A stretch of DNA of 64,000 nt from the IMG/VR virus record IMGVR_UViG_3300033143_002031, positions 120,745-184,744 of that record. One strand, 5' to 3'. The position numbers were made by a program, and so were the translations under genes. The notes beneath the pieces were generated by a model. That model worked only from the letters and a program-made list of their open reading frames with translations, made no database searches and was not told where the DNA came from. Within the stretch, counting starts at the first letter, position 1, and each line of letters opens with the position of its first letter. The stretch comes from a virus. Below, one piece after another: positions 276-36,545 of the stretch.

Positions 276-974
276 ATGACTGTCCGGACGAATTCGGTCC
301 AAACCTGCGACCGATGTGAGAAGCCTTTCAACGAAAAGCACCTGAAAGCGGCCGACGTCGTGCCGACTTTCAAACAGCATGGTCTCGTCGTCACGGAGAC
401 CAAGGGGACGAACAAGGACCCGGAGCCGAAGTTCACTGTGGTCATTTCCTTTGACGACATGTGCCCCGACTGCCAGAAGGCGATCGACAACCTGATCGCG
501 AAGATGCGTTTGGACGGGAAGAAGAAGCGCGGCCCGGCGAAGAAGCGCGGCGAGAAGAAGCCCGAGGAGAAGAAGCCTCCGAAGACCCCGGAGTACTCCG
601 AGAACCCGGAGGACGACCCAGCGAAGGCCGAGGGCGAGACCGTGAAGGAGACGGCAGAGAAGGTCGAGAAGGCCGCCGAAAAGGCGACCGAGACCGGAGA
701 GCCGCAGGTTACGGCGGTGCAGGGTGAGGAGGAGCCCGAGAACCCGGAGGAGCCCCCAGCCGATGCGCCCGCCGAAAACTCCGAGCCCGAGGAACCAGAA
801 CTCGCGAATGAGCCAGGCGAGACCTCGGATGGGGACAACGGTGCGGAAGCGACTTCCGAGACCGATGACGGGCTCGTGGAAGACCCCTTGACGGGCGACA
901 GGTACGACCCAGAGACGGGGGAGGTCAAGGTGCGGGGGAACAAGGGACAGAACGGGGAGAAGCACCCCTTCTAG
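276..974 (+). CDS. hypothetical protein, N-terminal Zn ribbon and acidic low-complexity tail
   Basis: CDRC...CPDC pairs, E/P-rich C-terminus, SD AGGAGGA upstream. Confidence 0.75.
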   Translation: MTVRTNSVQTCDRCEKPFNEKHLKAADVVPTFKQHGLVVTETKGTNKDPEPKFTVVISFDDMCPDCQKAIDNLIAKMRLDGKKKRGPAKKRGEKKPEEKKPPKTPEYSENPEDDPAKAEGETVKETAEKVEKAAEKATETGEPQVTAVQGEEEPENPEEPPADAPAENSEPEEPELANEPGETSDGDNGAEATSETDDGLVEDPLTGDRYDPETGEVKVRGNKGQNGEKHPF

Positions 975-11296: not shown

Positions 11297-11528
11297 TCTG
11301 AATCTGGTGCTACCCATAACCCCAGACAACCTGCACACCGAGTTGGAGCACATCGAGGCGACCGTCAAGAAGTGGCGGGAGTACATTGGCCAGGGCATTG
11401 TCGGGATCGACAAGCCGGCTCCGGACTCTGACGAGAAGCTGGACGCCTTCCTCCGGCAGTTTACCGGCGAGATGTTCTTTGTCGCTGGCAAGTGCCAGAA
11501 CATGGCTGTCGTGCTGTCCGAGCGATGA
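11289..11528 (+). CDS. hypothetical protein
   Basis: Overlapping starts and stops on both sides. Confidence 0.55.
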   Translation: MSDLNLVLPITPDNLHTELEHIEATVKKWREYIGQGIVGIDKPAPDSDEKLDAFLRQFTGEMFFVAGKCQNMAVVLSER

Positions 11529-12346
11529 CCCATAAGAAGAAGCTAGAAGGCAGAACGATCTTTGAGATGCTGGACCCGACCCTTCTGGACAACAACCCTT
11601 GGAATCCGAACACGCTGGATCAGGACGACTTCAATCGGCTTGTGAGCGAGATCGAGGACGTAGGATTTATAGCTCCTGTGCAGGTCATCCCAGTCGATGG
11701 TGGGAGGTATCGGATCATCGGAGGAGAGCACCGCGTCGCGGCGGCTGTGGACCTACGTCTTCCTTCTATTCCGGCCATGGTGCTCGATGGACCACGCTGG
11801 AAGGATGAAGACCTCCAGAAGCTCGTCACGGTGCGCCTGAATGTCCTGAGAGGGAAGCTCAACCCGGACAAGATGGCGCTGCTCTATCACCAGATGGCGA
11901 AGAGGTACGGAGAGGACGCTCTCCAGAGCCTCTTCGCCTACACGGACACGCACGGCTGGGACAAGTTGGTCAGCGGGATCAAGCAGGGCCTCTCGAAGGC
12001 GGCGCTGCCGAAGGACAAGCAGAAGGAGTTTGCTGAGAAGGCGAAGGAAGCCAAGACCCTGAAAGACCTCGAACGCATCCTCAACGAACTGTGGTCGAGC
12101 TACGGGGACACGGTGCAGCTATCCTTCATGGTCTTCACCTACGGCAAGCGGGAGCACTTCTACATCGCCATGGATAAGAAGACCCGGGAGGCGGTCAGGC
12201 GCATCGGAGACCACTGCAAGGGCCACGCGAAAGACATCAACACCGTCCTCGGTCCGGCACTCCAAGCGCTCGCTGACGTCCTCGACAAGAGCGAGTCGAA
12301 GAAGACCTCCAAGGCGAAGCCCCAGCAAGATGACGTCGGCTTCTGA
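11525..12346 (+). CDS. ParB/Srx-like protein
   Basis: NPWNPN...LVSEIEDVGFIAPV...YRIIGGEHRVAAA. Confidence 0.85.
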   Translation: MTHKKKLEGRTIFEMLDPTLLDNNPWNPNTLDQDDFNRLVSEIEDVGFIAPVQVIPVDGGRYRIIGGEHRVAAAVDLRLPSIPAMVLDGPRWKDEDLQKLVTVRLNVLRGKLNPDKMALLYHQMAKRYGEDALQSLFAYTDTHGWDKLVSGIKQGLSKAALPKDKQKEFAEKAKEAKTLKDLERILNELWSSYGDTVQLSFMVFTYGKREHFYIAMDKKTREAVRRIGDHCKGHAKDINTVLGPALQALADVLDKSESKKTSKAKPQQDDVGF

Positions 12347-12395: not shown

Positions 12396-15300
12396 ATGGG
12401 CATGTTGAGCGAGGCCATTCCGCACACTTCAGGGCTCCTCGTAGAGGCCCCGAAGGCGCCGAACCCGGAGAAGTTCGTTCCGGTGTTCTCGTGGACCATG
12501 AAGCGTGTCTGGGTGTGGGTGAAGAAGGGCGGCAAGGTCTTTGGCCCCACAGAGATCCCTCACGGCCAGGTCAAGAAGTACAAGGGAAAGCTCGGGTGGC
12601 TCCCGACAAAGACTGAGTACGTAGCGCTCTTGGACCCGAGCGCCTACACCGGCCCAGACGACCTGTACCCCCCGGGCTGGAAGTACGGGGATTCACTGGA
12701 CACGTCCACGTTCGTGGGCAAGCCTGTGGACATTCCGATCCTGGCGAAATTTGAACCGCTGGTGAAGCCCAAGGCGAAGAAGAAGGCCCCGAAGCTACCA
12801 CCTGAGTTCACCCTCACGGGCAAAAAGGACCCCCATGGATTCCCCACGGTCGACGACGACACCTCCGGAGATGTGTTTTCGATCCTCCCTGACGGACGTG
12901 TCATGGAGTTCGACCCTGACGACGGGCTCTACTACGAGGTGAAGAAGGAGGGAGCCACCTGGTTCACTCAGGCCGCCCCCACCTACTCGCCCGCCGACCT
13001 GAAGCCGGGGCCAGCCATAAAGCCAAAGGCGAAGCCGCAGCCGATGGAGCCTCCGGAGGACTTCGAGCTACCTCCGAACTACACGATCAAGAAAGTCACG
13101 CCGTCGCATGTGGTCGCCATAACGCCGGACGGCACGGACGTGAAGTGGATCAAGGTCACGAACCATTGGGTCCACGCTGACGACCCCACAAAGGACCACG
13201 AGCCCCTTCAGTCCGCGACTCTCAAGACCAAGACCAAGACCAAGGCCAAGGCCAAATCCAAGGCCCAGTCAAAGAACCCGTTCAAGGTCACCACGAAGAA
13301 GAAGCCCGGGGCGCCGTCGAAGAAGTACAGCACCAAGAAGGGCAAGCCCTCCACGAAAGCTCCGGAGCAGGAGAAGGTCGTTGCGCCTCACGCCGAACTG
13401 GCGCCTCACCTCACCAAGTACACGGGTCAGGTCGATGTGAACGGCCTCCCGCTCGTGGACGAAGTGATGGAGGTGGCTTCCGACGATGAGCAGGTGGCGA
13501 AGGGCCTGACGCTCATGCCGGACGACCGTGTGGCCCGATGGCGCCCGGACAGTGGCGTCTACCTGCTCTACGACTACGATCCCTACTACGGGTTTATGTT
13601 CTCGAAGTCGGGGGAGACCGTCTCCCCGGACGAGGCCAAGAAACTCATGACGGTCTTGTCCCTGACGGTCAAGAACGGCCGCTATCACCAGTTCCAGAAC
13701 GTGGGGGCGGACAAGGCCCAGCCGTCCACCTACAGCGTGCCCTTGCCGAACGACTGCAAGTCGATCTCGCAGAAGGACACGAACGGCCTTCCCATGGTGG
13801 AGTCGATCCCAACCGACGATATGGACGACAACCACAAGTTGACGCTCCTCCCCGACAGCCGCCTGGCCAGGTGGGACCCGCTGTCGATTCAGTACCTCGT
13901 GTGGGAATGGAGGGACATCCTCGGGGACTACAACTACTACCCGACCCACCCGACCGTGTACGTCACCTTGAAGGAGGTCAAGAAACTCCAGGCTCAGGTG
14001 CCCTCTGTGCCCGTCAGCACCCCCGTGGAGCCTCCGGAGTGGAAGCCCAAGGCGAAGCCCAAGGCGAAGCCCAAGGCGAAGCCTACGGGCGCCCTGGAGC
14101 CCGCAAACGCCAAGGACCCCAGGGGCTACCCTGTCGGGCTGTACAAGGGCAGCACGTATGCCATTCTGCCGGACGGCAAGGTCGGCGTCTGGTCCAAAGC
14201 GAACGGCGCCTACGTGCTCCACCAGTATGACGCGCTCGGGGACAGCTACTACAACTCGGGCTACATGTGGACTCCCCCGGGGATGCACCAAGCCCTGGCC
14301 CCGGACCACGGTACTTTCAGTGCTACCTTGGCCCATGTCGTGGACCACGACGGGAAGTCGGTCCTGGTGCTCCCGAACGGGAAGTTTGCCGAGCACAAGT
14401 ACATCGACGGCAAGTCCAAGATCGTCATCTACAAGGCCGACCCGGCGCAGGGGAAGAAGTTCGTTCCGACCGGAGAGATACTCGACCCATCGGACCTGAA
14501 GGACGTGATAGGGGAGCCTGACTACAAGACCCTGAAGCCCACGGGTGAGGTGGATGACAACGGCCTCCCAACCTACAAGGTTGTGCAGGGAGACTCCAAG
14601 CACCTGAAGCCCTTGGCGATGCTCCCGAACGGCTCCATGGCGGCGTGGAACCCCAAGGCGAAGACATACCGCCTGATGGAGTTTGACCCGCAGTTCGCGG
14701 TGTGGGAATTGTCCTTCCCGAAGGAGACATTCGATCTCAGCGACATCGACGCGATGTATCTGAAGTCCGGGGTCACCCCGATATCTGAGCCGCCGGCCCC
14801 CGCGAAGGCGATGACCCCTCTGGTGCCGGCGAAGGCAGTGAAGTCGGACGAGCCCGAGGCACCAAAGAAGCCCCCGAAGATGCCGGCAGCGGCGGCGTTC
14901 GTCACTCCGCAGGCCGACCTCCCCGACCCCGACACGCTGGAGGACATCGGGTCGGCCGGGATGAAGGGTGCCGGAGCCAAGACGCGACTCAAGGACCCGG
15001 ACACAGGCAAGCTCTATCTGTTCAAGCCGTCGATACCGAAGAGCGGCCCGAAGAAGACGCAGGCGTTCCGCGCCAAGTCGCAGGAGGGTTTCGCCGCCGT
15101 GGCGGCCGTAGCTCGCCCGGATGCCTATGTCCCTGTCGAGACGGTGAAGTACAAGGGGCAACTCGGGACGCTCCAACCGATGTTGGACCTGGACCCGAAT
15201 CAGGAAGACCTCGCGGGCGTGGCGCCCGAGGAGTTGACGGAGCAGCAGAAGCAGGACGTCGCCGAAGAGCACCTGCTCGATTGGCTCATGTCCCAGCACG

Positions 15301-17459
15301 ATTCCTTCGCCGCAAACTTCGTCATCACGAAGGAGGGCCGCGTCGTCGGGATCGACAAGGAACAGGGCTGGAAGTACGTCGGTCACAAGTCCCACCCCGA
15401 CGAGTTGAGTACGGAGTACCGACCCAACAGCGACCTCTACGGCGAGCAGGAGCCCTACTACAACAAGTTCTGGCGGGCGTTCGGCGGCGGCACGATGGAC
15501 TTCGATCCGAAGTCCATGAACAGCGCCCTCAAAAAGCTGGAACAGATGCCCGTCGAGACCTTGACCAAGGCCCTGGAGGGGTACGCGGCCACGAACAAAA
15601 AGATGCTCGGAGCGGACAAGGAATACGAGCGCTACGCTTTCGTGAAGAAGATGGTCTCTCGCCGGGCGACGCTGCGTCGGGACTTCGAGGAGTTCATCAC
15701 GGAGAAGTACGTGAAGCGCGAGGGCGAGACCGGGAAGTTTACGTTCGCGGCGGGGTGGGTGAGCGACGCCTCGGAGGCGGCCGGGCCGCAGTCCACATTC
15801 CAGGAGGTCTCGGACACCCTCCGAGGGCTCATCCTGAAGCATCTCGGCTCGAACGCCCTGAAGCCGCACAAGTCGGACCCGGACCTCACGGTCGTGCGTG
15901 TCCAGAATATGGAGCCGATCACAAAGGTCACGGAGTACCTCCAAGAACTAGGTGTCGAGGTGGTGGGAGAGCCGAAGATGGGCTCGAACTACAACATGGT
16001 GTTCGTGAAGAGCGGTGACCTCGACAAGACGATCACCAAGACGATCGAGATCAAGTCCGAACCAGGGCAGAAGTACCAGGACTTCAAGGGCTCCCCGACG
16101 TACCAGTCTGAGGCGTTCGCGCCCCAAGAGGCTCCTGCCAACATCGACGAGATCATCACGGTCGAGCAGGACCACCTGGGCCACGTCGGGAAGCAGTTCA
16201 CCCTGGACGGCAAGGCTGTGGAAGGGCAGTCAGCTAGCATTCAGAGGGTCATCCTCACGAACGGGAAGAAGGCCCACGTCGTCCACTTCAAACTCCGGAA
16301 GCCCTACTGGAAGGACATCACCGGGGGCGAGCCTGGCGAGTACAAGTGGCACCTCGGCGCCTACGACGAGGGCGAGGACGCGGTGCGTTACTCGTCGAGC
16401 GGGGGGCACTCTGAGAAGGCGCTCGTCTTCAAGGGGCCGAAAGGTTCGGAGATGTTCGTGCTCGGGCCGAAGGTGGACCACTCACACTACGGCAACAAAG
16501 CCAGTTACTCCTTCCAGGGGTCGGTGTACGCGATCATCCCTGAAGGGGCTGGGAAGGTGAAGACGGTTCTGAAGAAGCTGCTCGATGAGATCGGACTCGC
16601 GAAGGAGGTTCTGAAGAAGCCGAGCAAGTCGGACGTCGAACTGTTCCATCTATCGCAGGCGCTCTGGTCGGTCTCCCCGAAGGTCCACGACAAACTCATC
16701 GAGGATGACGTTGAGTTGACGATCCCCCTTCTGAAGAAGAAGCTGAAGGGCAAGTTGAAGAAGGACGAGATCGAGGCCATTCGCACAGTCCAAGGCCCAC
16801 TCGGAAGGGCGTCGGCGATCATCCCAGGTCGGTGGAAGACGCTCGGAGGCGGGACCGAGGACGACCCGGTGGTCCGGTTCCCGTTCTGGCAGGTGGACAA
16901 CCCTAGCAAGGTGGCCAACATACTCAAGACCGGAGGCGTAGGCGCTCACGAGCGGATGCGGATGGGGCTTGGTACTGGGGGCTCGTCGGTCCACTCCGAC
17001 ATGGAGACCGGCGGCTCGGACAACGTGACCACGCGGATCGCGATGAAGGACCACTACGGCTCGATGGACCAGGGAAATGTCCAGGGCGCTATCAAACTCG
17101 TCATCGCACCGGAACTCCTGGACCGGCTTGACGTTCACCTTGCGCGGGGGGACTCCTACGGGGCCACCAAGCCTGGGCATTCGTCGTTCTACGACAACCG
17201 GAAGGGGCTGAGCAGCGCGGTCAAGGCGGAGAACGCAAGCAAGCACTCGAACACGGAACTGGTCTTGCGGCGTGGGTTCCCGGCCTCCATGATCAAGCGC
17301 ATTGCGACGGGGGGCGAGAGCACGCGGAAGAAGGTTCTGGCAGCCCTGGATAACGCCGGCATCACCGAGCACAATGGGGTGCCCATCGAGGATTTCGTGG
17401 TCGTTGAAACGGATCAGAAGGCTATGTACACCAAGTACCTGAAGCCGCTGGGGTACTGA
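12396..17459 (+). CDS. 1687-aa multidomain protein: N-terminal repeats, HipA/PI3K-like kinase domain, C-terminal ADP-ribosyltransferase-like domain
   Basis: 5-6 repeats D-x-x-G-x-P...LP[DN]G-x-x-x-x-W; kinase motifs GSAGMKGAG, LYLFKP, DWLMSQHDSFAANF, GIDKEQ; C-terminal NILKTGG...GGSDNVTTR...NTELVLR (ART call weaker). Confidence 0.7.
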   Translation: MGMLSEAIPHTSGLLVEAPKAPNPEKFVPVFSWTMKRVWVWVKKGGKVFGPTEIPHGQVKKYKGKLGWLPTKTEYVALLDPSAYTGPDDLYPPGWKYGDSLDTSTFVGKPVDIPILAKFEPLVKPKAKKKAPKLPPEFTLTGKKDPHGFPTVDDDTSGDVFSILPDGRVMEFDPDDGLYYEVKKEGATWFTQAAPTYSPADLKPGPAIKPKAKPQPMEPPEDFELPPNYTIKKVTPSHVVAITPDGTDVKWIKVTNHWVHADDPTKDHEPLQSATLKTKTKTKAKAKSKAQSKNPFKVTTKKKPGAPSKKYSTKKGKPSTKAPEQEKVVAPHAELAPHLTKYTGQVDVNGLPLVDEVMEVASDDEQVAKGLTLMPDDRVARWRPDSGVYLLYDYDPYYGFMFSKSGETVSPDEAKKLMTVLSLTVKNGRYHQFQNVGADKAQPSTYSVPLPNDCKSISQKDTNGLPMVESIPTDDMDDNHKLTLLPDSRLARWDPLSIQYLVWEWRDILGDYNYYPTHPTVYVTLKEVKKLQAQVPSVPVSTPVEPPEWKPKAKPKAKPKAKPTGALEPANAKDPRGYPVGLYKGSTYAILPDGKVGVWSKANGAYVLHQYDALGDSYYNSGYMWTPPGMHQALAPDHGTFSATLAHVVDHDGKSVLVLPNGKFAEHKYIDGKSKIVIYKADPAQGKKFVPTGEILDPSDLKDVIGEPDYKTLKPTGEVDDNGLPTYKVVQGDSKHLKPLAMLPNGSMAAWNPKAKTYRLMEFDPQFAVWELSFPKETFDLSDIDAMYLKSGVTPISEPPAPAKAMTPLVPAKAVKSDEPEAPKKPPKMPAAAAFVTPQADLPDPDTLEDIGSAGMKGAGAKTRLKDPDTGKLYLFKPSIPKSGPKKTQAFRAKSQEGFAAVAAVARPDAYVPVETVKYKGQLGTLQPMLDLDPNQEDLAGVAPEELTEQQKQDVAEEHLLDWLMSQHDSFAANFVITKEGRVVGIDKEQGWKYVGHKSHPDELSTEYRPNSDLYGEQEPYYNKFWRAFGGGTMDFDPKSMNSALKKLEQMPVETLTKALEGYAATNKKMLGADKEYERYAFVKKMVSRRATLRRDFEEFITEKYVKREGETGKFTFAAGWVSDASEAAGPQSTFQEVSDTLRGLILKHLGSNALKPHKSDPDLTVVRVQNMEPITKVTEYLQELGVEVVGEPKMGSNYNMVFVKSGDLDKTITKTIEIKSEPGQKYQDFKGSPTYQSEAFAPQEAPANIDEIITVEQDHLGHVGKQFTLDGKAVEGQSASIQRVILTNGKKAHVVHFKLRKPYWKDITGGEPGEYKWHLGAYDEGEDAVRYSSSGGHSEKALVFKGPKGSEMFVLGPKVDHSHYGNKASYSFQGSVYAIIPEGAGKVKTVLKKLLDEIGLAKEVLKKPSKSDVELFHLSQALWSVSPKVHDKLIEDDVELTIPLLKKKLKGKLKKDEIEAIRTVQGPLGRASAIIPGRWKTLGGGTEDDPVVRFPFWQVDNPSKVANILKTGGVGAHERMRMGLGTGGSSVHSDMETGGSDNVTTRIAMKDHYGSMDQGNVQGAIKLVIAPELLDRLDVHLARGDSYGATKPGHSSFYDNRKGLSSAVKAENASKHSNTELVLRRGFPASMIKRIATGGESTRKKVLAALDNAGITEHNGVPIEDFVVVETDQKAMYTKYLKPLGY
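14043..14083 (+). repeat. coding 12-bp tandem repeat (AAGCCCAAGGCG x3, KPKA linker)
   Basis: Three exact copies plus a partial fourth. Confidence 0.9.
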
Positions 17460-17460
17460 C

Positions 17461-18654
17461 ATGTCACTGGACTTCAACACCGTCTACAAACTCAGGCTCG
17501 GGAGCGACCCGGCTCACCCCGAGATCGTCATGGCTCCTGTGCCGCTCCCTGCGGGGAAGGGGTGGTGGGTCCGTCGCACCTCTCCAGACCATCCGGAACG
17601 CATCCTCCGAGGCGACACGTTCGAGGGGGAGGGTGGGAAGGTCGTCGTGGTGACTAAGGACGGCCCAGCCACCTTCGAGCCTCTGACGCTGGACCTGTGG
17701 AAGGGGATGAACCCTTCCGATTCCTCCCACCTGCCGTTCGACTCGGATGGCGATTTGCAGGAGTTTTACTGGCACGATTGGATGACGGCCTCGGAGGAGA
17801 CCGGGGTGGGGGACATCGACTCGATCTCCAAGGCCCTCGCCATTCAGTACGGGGCTGAGATACAGGAGGGCCGTAAAGCCAAGCCTGGCGAGGTCCACCA
17901 GTGGAGCGACGGCTCCTACCTGAAGCTGCGCGATGGCACCTGGCAGAAGATACCCGGCACGGAGCCCGCCGCCGAGGGCGCGGAGATAATGGCCGAGACG
18001 ATCACGCGACTGAATGGGATGGTCGGAAGCGGCGAGTTGGCTCCCGGGATGGACATTCAGGACCACATCGACCAGGCCCGTGGCGTCGTGGACGCGCATA
18101 GGAAGGGTGTGGTCGCGTTCGGCGCGAAGCTGGAGGAGATGGCCGGGGGTGGCGCGAATGTCCAGGGCCGGGTGAAAACTCTCGGCTCGGTCCTCGGGAA
18201 GATCGCTACCAAGCCGCACTGGTTCAAAAAGGCGGATGACGTGCAGGACGGCACAGGCTACCGGATCATCCACGACAGCCTAGACGACGTGACGCGCTCC
18301 GTCGGGAAGATCAAGAAACAGTTCAAGGTGAAGGCGGAGCGGGACTACATCTCGAACCCGCAGGGCAGCTACCGATCGCACCACCTGATCGTGGAGGACG
18401 AAGACGGCCTGGAGAAAGAGATCCAGGTCCGGACGCGCCGGCAGCACGAGATGGCGGAGTGGTCGCACGACGTGTTCAAGCCACGGACGTCAGAGCAGAA
18501 GAAGAAGGTCGACGCCAACCGCAAAGAGATCGAGAAGACCCAGGCGAAGATTGCCGAGTGGGCATACGAGAAAGACAAGGGCAAGGACCCCGGCCCCCAG
18601 CCGGAGTGCCCCGAGCAGGTGTCCAACGCAGTCGGGTGCCGATCACTAGGGTGA
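17461..18654 (+). CDS. RelA/SpoT-family small alarmone synthetase with N-terminal extension
   Basis: All synthetase motifs present: GRVKTLGSVLGK, DGTGYRII, DYISNPQGSYRSHH, EIQVRT, QHEMAEWSH; no hydrolase domain. Confidence 0.9.
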   Translation: MSLDFNTVYKLRLGSDPAHPEIVMAPVPLPAGKGWWVRRTSPDHPERILRGDTFEGEGGKVVVVTKDGPATFEPLTLDLWKGMNPSDSSHLPFDSDGDLQEFYWHDWMTASEETGVGDIDSISKALAIQYGAEIQEGRKAKPGEVHQWSDGSYLKLRDGTWQKIPGTEPAAEGAEIMAETITRLNGMVGSGELAPGMDIQDHIDQARGVVDAHRKGVVAFGAKLEEMAGGGANVQGRVKTLGSVLGKIATKPHWFKKADDVQDGTGYRIIHDSLDDVTRSVGKIKKQFKVKAERDYISNPQGSYRSHHLIVEDEDGLEKEIQVRTRRQHEMAEWSHDVFKPRTSEQKKKVDANRKEIEKTQAKIAEWAYEKDKGKDPGPQPECPEQVSNAVGCRSLG

Positions 18655-18659
18655 GGACG

Positions 18660-18884
18660 ATGGCGAAGAAGACAGACATGGAGAAGCGGCTCGAAGCGAA
18701 GGCGAAGATGATCCCGAAGGAGGGGTTCAACCTCGTCGGGTTCGACGACTTCGAGGAGCCTGGAGATGAGCTACACCTGGCGGCGCGATTCGACACGCAC
18801 GAAGAGGCCGACGCCGCCATGAAGAAGCGGATGAAAGACGACCCGAGCCAGCGCTTCTTCATCTACGGCCCCGACGACCACTAG
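18660..18884 (+). CDS. small hypothetical protein (candidate antitoxin/regulator of the synthetase)
   Basis: SD GAGGA, ATG 5 nt after the synthetase stop; 74 aa. Function inferred from position only. Confidence 0.65.
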   Translation: MAKKTDMEKRLEAKAKMIPKEGFNLVGFDDFEEPGDELHLAARFDTHEEADAAMKKRMKDDPSQRFFIYGPDDH

Positions 18885-19223: not shown

Positions 19224-19685
19224 ATGGCTGATTCAAAAGTCGCAGGTGTCGCCGCAGCCGTGAAGAAGGCCAAGGGGAAGCCAGTGAAGAAGCGCGGCGA
19301 GGCAAAGGCGAAGCCCCACAAGGTGACCAAGCCGAGGAAGAAGAAGGCCGCCGCGAAGAAGGCGCCCCCGAAGAAGACTGCTGAGAAGAAGACCCCGACG
19401 AGCGGTCAGAGCGCTCCGTCCATAGAGCTTTCCACGGACGGTCTCAACACGAAGGAGGACAAGGTCTTCGCCGCGCTCAACGGCCCCGGTTCGGGCGTGC
19501 GGACGATCCTGACCATCGCGGAACTGTCGGAGACGTGCTTCAAGTCGCGCGGGAGGCGGCAGGCCAACTCGTGGACCCGGAACTCGCTTCGGCGCCTCGT
19601 GCAGGCCGGGCTCGTGGAGAAGGTCGCACGTGGCAAGTACCGCGTGTCGGAAGCCGGCCGTAAGAAGCTGGCCCGCGCCGCGTAG
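19224..19685 (+). CDS. Lys/Ala-rich (histone H1-like) N-terminus plus winged-helix DNA-binding protein
   Basis: KKAKGKPVKK...KKAAAKKAPPKK then LNTKEDKVFAAL...NSLRRLVQAGLVEKVARGKYRVSEAG; SD AAGGAG. Confidence 0.75.
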   Translation: MADSKVAGVAAAVKKAKGKPVKKRGEAKAKPHKVTKPRKKKAAAKKAPPKKTAEKKTPTSGQSAPSIELSTDGLNTKEDKVFAALNGPGSGVRTILTIAELSETCFKSRGRRQANSWTRNSLRRLVQAGLVEKVARGKYRVSEAGRKKLARAA

Positions 19686-21499: not shown

Positions 21500-21528
21500 T
21501 TGACTATCCTCCACCTTGCTGGTAGTGT
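21500..21528 (+). promoter_or_regulatory. sigma70-like promoter for the thyX-rpsU cluster
   Basis: TTGACT, 17 nt, TAGTGT with TGG immediately upstream of the -10. Confidence 0.6.
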
Positions 21529-21548
21529 CGCGTGCTTGGGAGGGAAAC

Positions 21549-22196
21549 ATGCCTGAGTTGATTGCCCCGCAATACGTCATCCTGGAGTACCCCGAGGACG
21601 CGCACTTGCGAATCGAGCGAGCGGCGCGCATCTGCTACAAGTCCGAGGACAAGATCACGGAAGGGTCGGCCGAGAAGCTGACGCGCGGGCTCATTGAACG
21701 ACGGCACTACGCGATGGTCGAGTTCGGTGGCTGGATCGTGGTCAAGTTCTTCTCCAACCGGGGCTTCACCCACGAACTGGTTCGGCACCGGCTATCCTCG
21801 CTGGCGCAGGAGTCAACGCGCTACTGCAACTACTCGAAGGGGAAGTTTTCCGGAGCGATCACCTGTGTCGATCCCTCGGCCATGCTGGAGATGAAGGTCT
21901 CCGATCCAGGGAAGCGGGCTGAGTTCAAGGCCGACATGATAGAGTCCTGGGCTCAGTGCGAAGCGAAGTACATGAGCATGGTCGAGTGTGGGTGCCCGGC
22001 GGAGATCGCGCGAGAGGTGCTCCCCATCGGCTTGAAGGCGGAGATCGTCATCGGCGCCAACGTGCGCGAGTGGCGGCACATCTTCTCGCTACGGTGCTCG
22101 AAGAAGGCCCACCCCCGCATGCGCGAACTGATGCTCCCGCTCCGTGAGGAGCTACAGAGCCTCGTCCCCGTTGTGTTCGATGACCTCGGAGAATAG
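21549..22196 (+). CDS. thyX: flavin-dependent thymidylate synthase
   Basis: IERAARICYKS, HELVRHRLSSLAQESTRY (RHRx7S), NVREWRHIFSLR. Confidence 0.95.
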   Translation: MPELIAPQYVILEYPEDAHLRIERAARICYKSEDKITEGSAEKLTRGLIERRHYAMVEFGGWIVVKFFSNRGFTHELVRHRLSSLAQESTRYCNYSKGKFSGAITCVDPSAMLEMKVSDPGKRAEFKADMIESWAQCEAKYMSMVECGCPAEIAREVLPIGLKAEIVIGANVREWRHIFSLRCSKKAHPRMRELMLPLREELQSLVPVVFDDLGE

Positions 22197-31214: not shown

Positions 31215-32108
31215 GTGTCGCCCAAGATGATCGAGAGCCCCAACAAACTCCTACCGGATGCCGAATTGCGGCGTCTTCGGTCAGGGAGCTACGAGGTAAA
31301 GATCGAGGAGGTCGCCCGAGCGGTCCGTGCGGGCCTTGGGGACGTTCCTTTCGAGGTGGTGGCGACGCAGGAGTACGGGGCTGTGGTGTACTCCGGTGGG
31401 AAGTACGTTCGCGTGGAGTTGACCGAGGATGGCCCGACGCTCTCGGACCTCGATGTCGAGGTATTCGACATGACAAGCATGCACGGTTTCGTGGGGAGGG
31501 AGGCCGGCGTTGTTGTCGACCTGTTCCTTCGTGGCGAGATGAAATCCGCTGTGTCCCGATTGGAGAATCTAGTTCCGAAGACCCGTGTCTCGGGCGGCAA
31601 GGTTGCAAAGATCGAGGGCATGATAGCGGCCCCGCGACCGTGGAGGCGGCTCTTCGAGGCGCGTGAGGACCACATTCTCGGCTTCATCGAGGGCGATGTG
31701 GAGGCTCTCGAAGAAGGCCGGTTGCGCCAGAAGTTCGGTAAGTTGTATGATGGGGCGATCGAAGAGGGCAAACTCAGTGCCTACGAGGATCGCGTGACAG
31801 AAGGTCTGAGGATCGTGATTGACAGGCTGGGTCAGATTCGAGACGAGGTAGGGACAGCGTTGGCAGTAGCGACCACTACCCTTTCCGAGTCCACCGGGCC
31901 TATCGCTGATATGTTTGCTCGATTTGCTGACGATCTGTTCGCCGACCTCTGTGCGATCCATGAATCAGGCTCCCACGCAATTGAGGCGGTAGACGATATC
32001 CGCTCCCGTGGTAGACTCTGCGACACGCTCGTCGGAGGGTTGCACGATCGGGAGGTCGCTGGCCGCTTCGTCGTGGTGGTGGCCAATAGAATGGTCGAGG
32101 CCAGCTAG
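31215..32108 (+). CDS. hypothetical head-module protein
   Basis: SD GAGGAA before GTG; lies between portal and scaffold. TTGACA-18-TAGTGT at 31189-31218 would favour ATG 31227 instead. Confidence 0.65.
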   Translation: MSPKMIESPNKLLPDAELRRLRSGSYEVKIEEVARAVRAGLGDVPFEVVATQEYGAVVYSGGKYVRVELTEDGPTLSDLDVEVFDMTSMHGFVGREAGVVVDLFLRGEMKSAVSRLENLVPKTRVSGGKVAKIEGMIAAPRPWRRLFEAREDHILGFIEGDVEALEEGRLRQKFGKLYDGAIEEGKLSAYEDRVTEGLRIVIDRLGQIRDEVGTALAVATTTLSESTGPIADMFARFADDLFADLCAIHESGSHAIEAVDDIRSRGRLCDTLVGGLHDREVAGRFVVVVANRMVEAS

Positions 32109-32118
32109 GAGGAATGGT

Positions 32119-33030
32119 ATGACTTTGCTCAGGCACGCGGTGGTAATCACCTCCCTGGAGGAGGACTTCCGGCGCATTGGCCTCATCAAGGAAGATCACC
32201 CCGGCGAGGGAGAGGACGTCCTTGCGGAGTCCGAGTCCGAGGAGACCGACGAGTCCGATTACGACGTGGACTTCGACGACGACGAGGACGAGGCAATCTC
32301 CAAGGCCCGCCCCGACTCCGACGAGGCCGACGAGGCCGACGAGGCCGACGAGTCCGACGAGTCCGACGAGGATGTCGCTATGGCCGAGGCCGTTGCTTTC
32401 CACGAGAGTGCGAAGGCGATGTGGCAGGAGTTCGGTGAGGATGGCATCGAGACGATCGATCTCGACTCGGGGCAGATGTCCGCTCTGGAGGGCATGGGGG
32501 ATACCACCACGCTCCCCGGCGGTGTCATCGACGAGACCATCGACGCTGACGACGAGGACGAGGCCATCGACGAGGACGACGACGAGGATGAGGGCGAAGA
32601 CGCCCCCAACCCGTTCGAGTCCGTGTCCGAGGCCATGAGCGCCATCGAGGCCATCCTGGACGAGGACGCGCGGCCGACCGACTCTCTGGAGGAGGCCACC
32701 CCAGCGTTCGCCAACCTCGCGCTCATCTCGGAGAAGCTGTACGGTTTCTTCACCGAGACCGCCGAGGCTCAGGACGATGCCGAGTACGCGGAGATTGCCG
32801 AGGCGTACAAGAGCATCGCGCAGTACTCGGCAGCGATCGTGGACACGCTCAAGACCGAGAGTGCCGACACGATCAACTTCGAGGCCCTCACGGAGACGTT
32901 CCAGGACTACCTGGCGACGGTCCTCCAGGGCTTGGAGACCTTCGCCATCCTCCGGGAGGCCGATGAGGACGAGGACGAGGACGAGGACGACGGTGAGGAG
33001 CAGGACGAGGGCGATGAGGGAAACGGGTAA
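32119..33030 (+). CDS. highly acidic prohead core/scaffolding protein (303 aa)
   Basis: SD AGGAGG; very D/E-rich with 9-bp DEA coding repeats near 32319-32370; located before the protease as in T4-like head modules. Confidence 0.7.
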   Translation: MTLLRHAVVITSLEEDFRRIGLIKEDHPGEGEDVLAESESEETDESDYDVDFDDDEDEAISKARPDSDEADEADEADESDESDEDVAMAEAVAFHESAKAMWQEFGEDGIETIDLDSGQMSALEGMGDTTTLPGGVIDETIDADDEDEAIDEDDDEDEGEDAPNPFESVSEAMSAIEAILDEDARPTDSLEEATPAFANLALISEKLYGFFTETAEAQDDAEYAEIAEAYKSIAQYSAAIVDTLKTESADTINFEALTETFQDYLATVLQGLETFAILREADEDEDEDEDDGEEQDEGDEGNG

Positions 33031-35036: not shown

Positions 35037-36545
35037 GTGGAAGCTCGACAGATGCTTCAGGAAGAGGGTCGTCGAACGATCGCCGACCAGAGCTACGTCG
35101 GGGCCTTGATCCGGAAGTGGGGAGACTTCCTGGAGGGCCTCGCCGATCGATCCGAGCAGGACAGGTACATCCTCGGATGCACCGCCATGCTCATGGAGAA
35201 CGAGAGCCTCTGGCTCCAGTCTCTCACGGAGGAGACGCGCACGGTGAACGTCGGTTCGTTCACCAAGTTCATCTTCCCCGTTTTGAGGCGAGTTTTCCCG
35301 AACCTCATCGCCAACGAGATCGTCTCGGTCCAGCCGATGACGGCCCCGATCGGTGCTGTCTTCTTCCTCGACTACGTGTACGGTTCGACCAAGGGCGGCA
35401 CGACCGAGGGGAACGTGTTCCCACGTGACTTCGATCGTGACTACTCCAGCGAGTACGTCAACGGCGAGTCGATGGTGACCGGCGATGGCGTCAACTTCGG
35501 TGGTGGTGGTGGTGCGCTCGACCTCACCGGGACCCTCGCGTGGACCCCGGTTCGGCCCCTCGATGCTGCTCGTGAGTTCTCGTGCGCCATCCGGGAGGTT
35601 TCGGCGGCGGACGGGTCGACCGTGCAGGAGGCCGTCGACGATGGGGCGGGCGGCTTCACGTTCACCCCGGCCGGTGGACTCACTTCAGGCTCGATCAACT
35701 ACGCGAACGGCGCGGTGACTGGGTTCCAGTTCCAGAACATCCCCGCCCTCGGGAACCAGGTCAAGGCGTACTACTACTTCGACGGGGAACTCAACACCAA
35801 GGTTCCCGAGATCAAGCTCGACATCAAGAAGGCGCCGGTCGAGGCCAAGCCGCGTCGACTCAAGGCCCTGTGGTCGAGCGAGGCGGCGGAAGACCTCCGT
35901 GCGTTCCACGGTCTCGACGCCGAGACCGAGATCGTGTCGATCATCGCTCAGGAGATCGCGCTGGAGATCGACCGCGAGATCATCAACGACCTCTTCCTGG
36001 CTTCGACGGGGACCACCGGCACGTTCGACCGCATCCCGCCCGGTGGCATCTCGGAGATCGACCACATCCGAGCGCTGATCACGCAGATCAGCACCGTCTC
36101 GAACCTCATCCACAAGAAAACCCTCCGCGCCCCGGCGAACTGGATCATCACGAGCCCCGAAATCTCGGCGCTCCTGACCCAGTTGACCACGCACGGCGAC
36201 TTCAAGCCGATCTGGTCGTCGGACATGAACCCGAACTCGCCGACCGACGTACCTCGGCCGCGCACGGCGCATGGGCAGTTCTCGATCTACAAGACCGGGA
36301 CGCTCATGAACAAGTGGGTCGTCTACGAAGATCCCTTCTTCACGACCAACAAGATGATGGTCGGTCTGAAGGGCGGCAGCTTCCTGGAGTCCGGCTACTG
36401 CTGGGCGCCCTACGTGCCCCTCCAGGTCACGCCGACCTTCCTCGATCCGAGCGACTTCAGCTTCCGCAAGGGCCTCCGGACCCGCTACGCGAAGAAGCTG
36501 CTTCGCCCGGACTTCTACGGCCAGTTGACGATCAACAACCTGTAG
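35037..36545 (+). CDS. major capsid protein (T4 gp23-like)
   Basis: PVLRRVFPNLIANEIVSVQPMTAPIG, RRLKALWSSEAAEDLRAFHGLDAETEI, YCWAPYVPL, GLRTRYA; SD AAGGAGG. Confidence 0.95.
   Translation: MEARQMLQEEGRRTIADQSYVGALIRKWGDFLEGLADRSEQDRYILGCTAMLMENESLWLQSLTEETRTVNVGSFTKFIFPVLRRVFPNLIANEIVSVQPMTAPIGAVFFLDYVYGSTKGGTTEGNVFPRDFDRDYSSEYVNGESMVTGDGVNFGGGGGALDLTGTLAWTPVRPLDAAREFSCAIREVSAADGSTVQEAVDDGAGGFTFTPAGGLTSGSINYANGAVTGFQFQNIPALGNQVKAYYYFDGELNTKVPEIKLDIKKAPVEAKPRRLKALWSSEAAEDLRAFHGLDAETEIVSIIAQEIALEIDREIINDLFLASTGTTGTFDRIPPGGISEIDHIRALITQISTVSNLIHKKTLRAPANWIITSPEISALLTQLTTHGDFKPIWSSDMNPNSPTDVPRPRTAHGQFSIYKTGTLMNKWVVYEDPFFTTNKMMVGLKGGSFLESGYCWAPYVPLQVTPTFLDPSDFSFRKGLRTRYAKKLLRPDFYGQLTINNL

Follow-up and report, generated by a model that had tools for sequence, protein, structure and literature searches.

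What does a phage protein of 1687 amino acids (aa) do when its sequence places it in no annotated family? The question is raised by a single open reading frame (ORF), here called the giant ORF, in a 64,000-nucleotide (nt) stretch of viral DNA. This stretch, the window, comprises bases 120745–184744 of the 184,744-bp IMG/VR virus record IMGVR_UViG_3300033143_002031, which has a completeness estimate of 88%. A sequence-only reading of the window had described the product of this ORF as one polypeptide that joins a repeat array to two modifying enzymes, an atypical kinase and a possible ADP-ribosyltransferase (ART). The ORF is intact from ATG to stop on the plus strand, as that reading had proposed. 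Phages use both kinases (T7 gp0.7) and ARTs (T4 Alt and Mod) on their hosts. Structure prediction and fold searches support the two-enzyme description at the level of the fold, in that one predicted domain is kinase-like and the other ART-like. Judged from these models, there is an even chance that the giant protein is a multi-domain enzyme of the polyvalent-effector type, in which two predicted catalytic modules lie behind a variable repeat array.

The giant protein has no Pfam match at E ≤ 1, no NCBIfam family, and no PHROG function label; its sole PHROG match is a function-less PHROG (E 0.004). Comparison with PDB sequences, using phmmer and three family profiles, returns only low-complexity or chance rows, and megablast of the DNA against phage records matches nothing. 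Its relatives are instead found in metagenomes. For residues 835–1687, a cut-off of E ≤ 1e-3 takes in 1387 clusters (formed at 50% identity), and 168 of these remain at E ≤ 1e-30. All of these clusters are metagenomic; among the matches listed, roughly the first hundred, in proteins of 959–4180 aa, cover the kinase and ART halves alike. The full giant protein is missing from 50,697 phage records, in which five Mycobacterium prophage records match the kinase part only. On sequence evidence, the 850-aa two-enzyme module defines a large, unannotated, phage-restricted and metagenome-only family with fixed synteny. Stand-alone C-terminal proteins were considered as separate genes and set aside as untrustworthy: one of them, P0119, lies on a 1,059-bp contig, and a search for shorter C-terminal homologues yielded only a 154-aa fragment.

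The first of the two modules is a predicted kinase. An AlphaFold2 model of aa 835–1240, with 61 sequences in its alignment, has a predicted local distance difference test score (pLDDT) of 92.6, and establishes for aa 838–1122 a predicted kinase fold of the PI4KII/CtkA/HipA group. In Foldseek, kinase chains that match the model at E ≤ 1e-3 number at least 500. In VIA-align the top matches are PI4KIIα and β (Z 14.7–14.8, 226–236 residues, 3.8–4.0 Å), the PI4KIIα alignment covering 236 residues at Z 14.8 and 3.9 Å. These are followed by Helicobacter pylori CtkA (13.5–13.9), LepB (11.8), Fam20A (11.6), MavQ (11.2), Vps34 and ATR (11.1), actin-fragmin kinase (11.0), and HipA/HipT (9.3–10.3). The HipA/PI3K-like motifs noticed earlier by eye are thereby placed in a modelled kinase domain. 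ESM-Atlas feature neighbours of the kinase part, which serve as a lead only, are PI3_PI4_kinase, HipA_2, LepB_N, and actin-fragmin kinase clusters.

Like the PI4KII, CtkA and HipA kinases, the domain is bilobal and has a Gly-rich loop (aa 856–862, consensus L-G-G-A-G-x-K), a β3 lysine, a D-x-[H]-x-x-N catalytic loop (H-D969-S-F971-A-A-N974), and, at the metal-binding position, a downstream aspartate in the segment I-D987-K-E-Q. Conservation over the 61 sequences is high at K877 (60/61), D969 (61/61), N974 (55/61), D987 (60/61), and E989 and Q990 (both 61/61), and extends to the Gly-rich loop, Q896, GTLQP, and G981. The Gly-rich loop, K877, D969, N974 and D987 form a conserved set for ATP binding and phosphotransfer that is intact apart from the change of the loop His to Phe, and an active kinase site is likely. 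The sequence-only reading had correctly picked out DSFAAN in place of the usual D-x-H-x-x-N; at position 971 the relatives have His in 41 sequences, Phe in 16, and Tyr in 4. Unlike the solved kinases, the giant protein has no Pfam membership (no PI3_PI4_kinase or HipA_C match at E ≤ 1), and its best relatives reach only E 0.0043 (PI3_PI4_kinase, in the catalytic-loop region) and 0.16 (HipA_C), both below cut-offs. An hhalign comparison with E. coli HipA aligns only the catalytic loop, on D309-G-H-A-K-N, at a probability of 2.8%, which is a likeness at motif level only. Though faint, the PI3_PI4_kinase match of the relative, this placement on HipA and the ESM-Atlas neighbours are independent signs in line with the kinase fold. 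The family also has a signature of its own: GTLQP, EH..DW..SQHD, IDKEQ, YxPN, and PYYN.

The second module lies at the C-terminus. A model of aa 1241–1687 (56 sequences in the alignment, pLDDT 93.3, predicted template-modelling score 0.91) predicts an ADP-ribosyltransferase fold for aa 1463–1687, and among solved structures only DarT enzymes come close to it. The top eight PDB matches in Foldseek are all DarTs, at modest E-values of 1.2e-3 to 2.3e-2. VIA-align matches E. coli C7 DarT1 at Z 13.0 (164 residues aligned, 3.1 Å) to model residues 239–434, corresponding to aa 1479–1674, and the remaining DarT entries score 10.1–12.1. In an exhaustive VIA search of 48,161 representative chains, only four reach Z ≥ 8, and all are DarTs (13.0, 12.2, 11.1 and 10.8); the next-ranked ARTs are CopC (7.1), OspC3 (7.0), Tpt1 (6.8), SopF (6.4), CteC (6.1), KptA (5.8), and Scabin (5.8). 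An ESM-Atlas shape search likewise leads to DarT clusters (PF14487; TM 0.74 over 182 residues, root-mean-square deviation 3.0), while the ESM-Atlas feature search of the C-terminus was uninformative.

In DarT1, the catalytic glutamate is E152, the NAD+-loop arginine R52 is paired with D54, and F18 in β1 stacks on nicotinamide (PMC11543638). Mapped approximately, by offset within the aligned ranges, E1621 of the giant protein corresponds to E152 and F1495 to F18, and R1520 is the best candidate for R52. E1621 is the sole acidic residue on its strand and is present in all 56 sequences, and R1520 is present in 55 of the 56. The other invariant or near-invariant positions in this set are F1495, G1524, G1529, S1531, D1535, G1539, D1542, R1547, P1572, D1576, R1577, D1579, D1586, R1602, R1625, R1635, R1644, and N1660. 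On this approximate mapping, the likeness to DarT1 and DarT2, the single-stranded-DNA ARTs of DarTG toxin–antitoxin systems (PDB 8baq, 7omv, 7omu and 7yk3; Z 10.8–13.0, 156–164 residues aligned, 3.1–3.7 Å), would include an invariant glutamate on the E152 strand, a β1 aromatic residue, and an invariant loop arginine. In contrast, the domain is only 10–13% identical to DarT with no sequence-level match, forms the C-terminus of a 1687-aa phage protein where DarT is a bacterial toxin of about 200 aa, and has an additional invariant D1576-R1577-x-D1579 and D1586 with no assigned DarT counterpart.

The proposal of an ART is supported at the level of the predicted fold, with the strings NILKTGG, GGSDNVTTR and NTEL all falling within aa 1479–1674 alongside the invariant E1621. 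The fold is nearest to DarT, a DNA-base ART, and not to the T4 Alt and Mod type. Those T4 enzymes modify proteins and are assigned to the Alt/VIP2 family (PMC9503650). Toxins of the R-S-E type (cholera, pertussis, Scabin and pierisin) reach only Z 3.7–5.8 with the C-terminal model, no Alt structure occurs in its match lists, and the ADPrib_exo_Tox and ART Pfam models have no match to the giant protein.

Folds like the C-terminal model are also scattered through uncharacterised proteins of phages and large eukaryotic viruses in BFVD. A 763-aa protein of Bacillus phage SP-15 (A0A127AWP1) matches clearly (E 9e-4, prob 1.0), and a 932-aa protein of Bacillus phage CP-51 (A0A068EUD1), annotated as ParB_N-containing, matches weakly (E 0.023, prob 0.89). 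In both, the region matched covers some part of the C-terminal model and not necessarily the ART. The ParB_N annotation of the CP-51 protein echoes the ParB_N gene beside the giant ORF. A further BFVD match is a protein of Mycobacterium phage Larenn.

Both modules could in principle be binding pseudoenzymes within a largely structural protein, for example an internal head protein or a DNA-associated scaffold. The replacement of the catalytic-loop His by Phe, the huge and variable repeat array, and the lack of sequence-level membership in any enzyme family are consistent with such a role. Set against it are K877 (60/61), D969 (61/61), D987 (60/61), E1621 (56/56) and R1520 (55/56), held over homologues at 25–73% identity. 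Since near-invariant catalytic positions over 56–61 divergent sequences are the pattern expected of active enzymes, this explanation is very improbable.

A clue to the role of the kinase domain comes from relatives that are shorter or differently built. Of 20 scanned, eight also contain an ART-type domain, drawn from ADPrib_exo_Tox, SopF-like DUF3626, ART-PolyVal, or DRAT-like families, and others carry MuF, InPase, PBECR5, NUDIX, or mCpol. The Mycobacterium prophage protein McProf gp54, which holds the kinase domain, is annotated as a 'minor capsid and ADP-ribosyltransferase fusion', and its gene lies between the portal and scaffold genes. On another contig (L010:7001-13426, protein P0129), NUDIX, DUF3626, the kinase domain, and PBECR5 occur in one protein, and at L012:1-10890 a protein with the kinase domain and ADPrib_exo_Tox adjoins a 3397-aa MuF/ART/2H polyvalent protein. 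We take DUF3626 to be the SopF family and SopF to be an ART; the Salmonella effector–NAD–ARF1 complex 7dn9, presumably SopF, matches the C-terminal model as an ART (Z 6.4). DUF3626 is mentioned in a paper on the Salmonella effector SopF (PMC6682159). Because the kinase domain recurs in MuF, ART and polyvalent architectures, it belongs to a phage effector toolkit in which it is habitually paired with ARTs. By analogy with these relatives, the giant protein may act in host takeover or anti-defence. The recurrent pairing of the kinase domain with four different ART families also hints at a functional kinase–ART coupling.

Such effectors, polyvalent or delivered by MuF proteins, are described by Iyer et al. 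2017 (PMC5512222), and ART, kinase, ParB-type and RelA/SpoT domains recur in the network of that paper. The giant protein resembles polyvalent proteins in holding several effector domains in one phage polypeptide and in sharing its kinase domain with MuF, ART, InPase, PBECR5 and NUDIX proteins; the ParB-type and RelA/SpoT domains, typical companions in that network, are also neighbours of the giant gene. In contrast to polyvalent/MuF effectors, the giant protein lacks MuF, a processing metallopeptidase and any polyvalent domain that Pfam recognises, and its gene lies in a replication module. The kinase of the network is said in the paper to lack the whole C-terminal lobe, whereas the model of the giant protein keeps a helical C-lobe. 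Term searches of the paper did not turn up the DarT-like ART or the repeat described below, although DarT itself was not searched for there.

The repeat array, which occupies much of the N-terminal half of the protein, consists of units of about 60 aa. The earlier count of five to six copies separated by Lys/Pro linkers can be refined to five full and two partial copies. The core [LIVMT]-P-[DN]-[GDS]-[RKST]-x3-4-[WFHY] occurs seven times in aa 1–835 (at aa 164, 243, 374, 485, 591, 659 and 743) against 0.03 expected from shuffles, and D-x-x-G-x-P lies upstream of the core in five copies. A hidden Markov model (HMM) of the repeat, as had been suggested, was built on the five full copies; it recovers these at E 1e-23 to 1e-30 and finds 4 to about 24 copies in homologues. 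Because the counts vary, it is largely repeat number that sets the N-terminal length of these proteins, whose total size runs from 959 to more than 4000 aa. The repeats are mostly acidic (isoelectric point (pI) 4.1–5.6; two are neutral, at pI 7.0–7.1), and the Lys/Pro linkers are basic (pI 9.3–10.4). As far as its sequence indicates, this is a new repeat; the units and their basic linkers would serve as a spacer of variable length and as a platform for binding, possibly along DNA.

If the giant protein is an effector, the route by which it would reach its target may be indicated by its N-terminus. In a set of 97 homologues, 77% have the motif [LIVM]xE[AGS] among their first 45 aa, compared with 1–10% in each later 45-aa window. 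In 12 of the 13 relatives that keep an F-V-P-V-F-x-W box, and in most remoter ones, a variable leader of about 6–35 residues is followed by h-x-E-[AGS], usually L-x-E-A, and the conserved sequence begins just behind the motif. The giant protein itself has only four such motifs in 1687 aa, and two of these fall within its first 18 aa. In T4, gp21 cuts after L/I-X-E, and proteins retained in the head thereby lose N-terminal propeptides that range from 7 residues in Alt to 65 in gp23; Alt, trimmed of its 7-aa propeptide, is packaged and then ejected into the host (PMC9026906). The giant protein is like T4 Alt in being a predicted ART of a T4-type phage with an N-terminal motif of the L/I-x-E cleavage type a few residues from its start. 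The position-specific L-x-E-A motif, the presence in this genome of a gp21-type protease (Peptidase_S77), and the precedent of Alt together suggest head packaging of the giant protein.

The protease belongs to a recognisable head-gene set. Nearly all long ORFs in the window lie on the plus strand, the GC content is about 0.60–0.65, and the T4-type head genes include those for the major capsid protein (Gp23), the portal (gp20-type), and the gp21-type prohead protease, along with tail genes for sheath, tape measure, and baseplate wedge. By its gene content, the source is an uncultured contractile-tailed, T4-like phage of about 185 kb with a T4-type head. Its capsid protein is only 26–37% identical to the best phage relatives among the 50,697 phage records. 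In this protein (window 35037–36545), the Gp23 profile begins at residue 73, and the motif L63-T-E65 coincides with the site at which T4 gp23 is cut (after residue 65), provided that GTG has been correctly taken as the start. Between the genes for portal and protease, two ORFs (31215–32108 and 32008–33030) contain eight and six [LIVM]xE[AGS] motifs, a density of 1.8–2.7 per 100 aa compared with 0.1–0.5 in most other proteins. These ORFs are possibly core or scaffold proteins, and this is the pattern expected if they are degraded by the prohead protease. They overlap by about 100 nt as listed, and their starts are thus uncertain.

Taken together, the explanation that best accommodates these features is a kinase plus DarT-like ART effector that is packaged in the head, ejected with the DNA, and acts on the host, and it has roughly equal chances of being right or wrong. 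In such a sequence of events, the T4 gp21-type prohead protease would cut the N-terminal L-x-E-A site after the glutamate, and the protein would be loaded into the head like T4 Alt. Ejected with the DNA, it would act at the start of infection. The kinase would phosphorylate one or more host proteins, as HipA and T7 gp0.7 do, while the DarT-like domain would use NAD+ to ADP-ribosylate nucleic acid. Its likeliest targets would be bases of host DNA in single-stranded form, and host replication would be stalled. A small conserved protein, whose gene follows directly, may regulate or neutralise the giant protein within the producing cell.

The location of the gene points to a different possibility. 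The local order is helicase, UvsX/RecA, Cas4-like exonuclease, RuvC, SSB, ParB_N, giant ORF, RelA/SpoT, DNA polymerase A, and a ThyA-like gene. ParB_N lies directly upstream of the giant gene in all five informative homologue loci (those with enough flank), at identities down to about 32%, and DNA polymerase A follows one to three small genes downstream in the same five of five. The giant protein could accordingly be a non-packaged enzyme of a replication factory, made in early or mid-infection with the ParB-like nuclease, SSB, RecA, RuvC, and PolA. Within the infected cell its target would be DNA: it would mark or block single-stranded host DNA, or reversibly modify phage DNA, or DNA ends, so as to shield them; its kinase would regulate replication and repair proteins, and its basic linkers would tether it to DNA. 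Besides the ParB_N–giant–small ORF–PolA synteny, this role would fit the activity of the nearest solved relatives of the ART domain on single-stranded DNA, the weak ART-like structural match of the ParB_N-annotated CP-51 protein, the basic linkers, and a weak KorB-like helical match in the giant protein itself. However, synteny within one phage lineage may only mean vertical descent. In the known DarT systems, template bases that carry ADP-ribose block replication (PMC11543638), and no reversal enzyme was found in this genome; the position-specific N-terminal L-x-E-A motif is also left unexplained. We regard the replication-factory role as rather unlikely, though it is the foremost of the alternatives.

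The gene that follows raises a third possibility. The 397-aa protein encoded there has a RelA/SpoT synthetase domain (PF04607, E 1.4e-18) and no hydrolase match. In three other loci the giant gene is followed by ORFs of 97–155 aa, which are homologous to one another (E down to 5e-23) and also, though more weakly at E about 1e-3, to the N-terminal ~130 aa of the 397-aa product. This partner domain is therefore fused to the RelA/SpoT synthetase in the window phage and its closest relative and occurs alone in the other loci, so that a partner ORF lies downstream of the giant gene in every locus examined. Only two close homologues of the downstream partner protein were found; searches of Pfam and NCBIfam place it in no known family and reveal no Macro or NADAR signature. 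Such an arrangement could constitute a phage-borne toxin–antidote or exclusion module, in which a DarT-like toxin is held in check by the downstream small protein and serves against co-infecting phages or for retention. In its favour, DarT is the toxin of a toxin–antitoxin system (PMC11543638), the partner ORF is constant (with a gap of 1 nt here), and a RelA/SpoT domain lies next door. The lack of a Macro or NADAR signature in the partner counts against a module of this kind, as do the place of the giant gene in the conserved core of a T4-like lineage that looks lytic, with replication genes around it, and the size of the protein: toxin–antitoxin toxins are not normally 1000–4400 aa long with a kinase and repeat arrays. 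We consider the toxin–antidote explanation improbable.

Several observations also weigh against the packaged-effector explanation. The giant gene lies among replication and recombination genes in every locus seen and not beside the head genes, and an HMM search of the genome did not find MuF. The L-x-E-A motif might be no more than the point at which conservation in the N-terminal domain begins. In the kinase, the catalytic-loop His is replaced by Phe (F971) throughout the 16-sequence clade of the giant protein. For the ART, the equivalences to F18, R52 and E152 of DarT1 are estimated from aligned ranges and not from residue-level superposition. Kinship with DarT rests on predicted structure, because the DarT HMM PF14487 finds nothing in the genome at E ≤ 10. 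Finally, unlike in DarT systems, no Macro (DarG) or NADAR reversal enzyme was found by HMM search in this 88%-complete genome.

DarT enzymes are bacterial toxins that stop phages by ADP-ribosylating phage DNA. An offensive phage ART of the DarT type would mirror bacterial DarTG defence: a DNA-modifying enzyme of a type used in bacterial anti-phage defence seems here to be used by a phage. As a core gene in a lineage of phages of about 150–200 kb, and together with a kinase, the DarT-like domain may turn the same chemistry on the host or on rival phages. In its widest form, the proposal is that the large uncultured phages of a widespread T4-like lineage use a DarT-type ART as an offensive weapon, physically coupled to a PI4K/HipA-type kinase on a repeat scaffold, packaged by means of a gp21-type propeptide, and injected so as to ADP-ribosylate host DNA (or DNA ends) and phosphorylate host factors as soon as infection begins. 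This wider proposal is tentative, and the odds are against it. The family also adds three further domains that match no solved fold convincingly and the new ~60-aa repeat, expanding from 4 to about 24 copies.

The positions of the domains, candidate residues, and adjacent genes are collected in the table.

Table. Features of the giant ORF and its immediate neighbours, in window coordinates (a slash in a motif marks the candidate cleavage point)
Feature	Position	Strand	Evidence or remark
ParB_N gene (ParB/Srx-type nuclease/NTPase-like)	11492..12346	+	PF02195 E 1.6e-9; phrog_26387 5e-54
Giant ORF, 1687 aa, ATG to stop	12396..17459	+	22 near-full-length homologues
N-terminal leader, LSE/A aa 4-7 and LVE/A aa 15-18	12396..12449	+	candidate propeptide/capsid-targeting sequence
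Conserved N-terminal domain, aa 19-120	12450..12755	+	conserved in 22 homologues
Repeat array, aa 141-780	12816..14735	+	motif count, repeat HMM, pI of linkers
Full repeat copies, aa 141-198, 343-410, 457-522, 570-627, 716-780			
Partial repeat copies, around aa 236-270 and 646-690			
Atypical protein-kinase-like domain (predicted), aa 838-1122	14907..15761	+	AlphaFold2 model, Foldseek, VIA, residue conservation
Kinase residue K877	15024-15026		
Kinase residue D969 (also F971, N974)	15300-15302		
Kinase residue D987	15354-15356		
Small alpha/beta domain, aa 1123-1240	15762..16115	+	confident model
Beta-rich domain, aa 1262-1385	16179..16550	+	model; conserved E1276, K1299, R1301
Helical linker region, aa 1388-1462	16557..16781	+	model
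DarT-like ADP-ribosyltransferase domain (predicted), aa 1463-1687	16782..17456	+	model, Foldseek, VIA, ESM-Atlas, conservation
ART residue R1520	16953-16955		
ART residue E1621	17256-17258		
Downstream gene, 397 aa, starts 1 nt after the giant ORF's stop	17461..18654	+	RelA/SpoT synthetase domain aa 236-337

The three regions between the kinase and the ART (aa 1123–1240, 1262–1385 and 1388–1462) are confidently modelled and have no convincing fold match, the best Z being 4.7 or lower; for the first of these, the match lists are filled by the adjoining kinase domain. For the beta-rich domain, similarities to type III secretion chaperones (Z 3.7–4.3), CYTH (3.2–3.8), START, and Med18 were rejected as too weak (Z 3.2–4.3). 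The helical linker gives the KorB match referred to above: over 46 aa it bears a weak, helix-turn-helix-like resemblance (Z 4.7) to the part of KorB that binds DNA.

Further downstream, a 74-aa ORF (18660–18884) after the RelA/SpoT gene is 71% identical to its counterpart in TARA contig L002. Just upstream of DNA polymerase A lies a conserved gene for a 153-aa protein (19224–19685) whose N-terminus is rich in Lys and Ala and whose C-terminus has a winged-helix match (AbiEi_4 / Mrr_N); the L002 and L003 counterparts share 71–72% identity with it. In two related phages, the DNA polymerase A genes (L002:15780-19361, 1193 aa, and L009:18263-21382, 1039 aa) are about twice the length of that in the window (598 aa); the L009 gene has a LAGLIDADG_2 match, which probably marks an intein or a homing-endonuclease insertion. 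In every related locus, the DNA polymerase A gene is followed by a thymidylate-synthase-like gene, here of 226 aa (21516–22196), and if it encodes a pyrimidine hydroxymethylase rather than a true ThyA, modified phage DNA would be implied.

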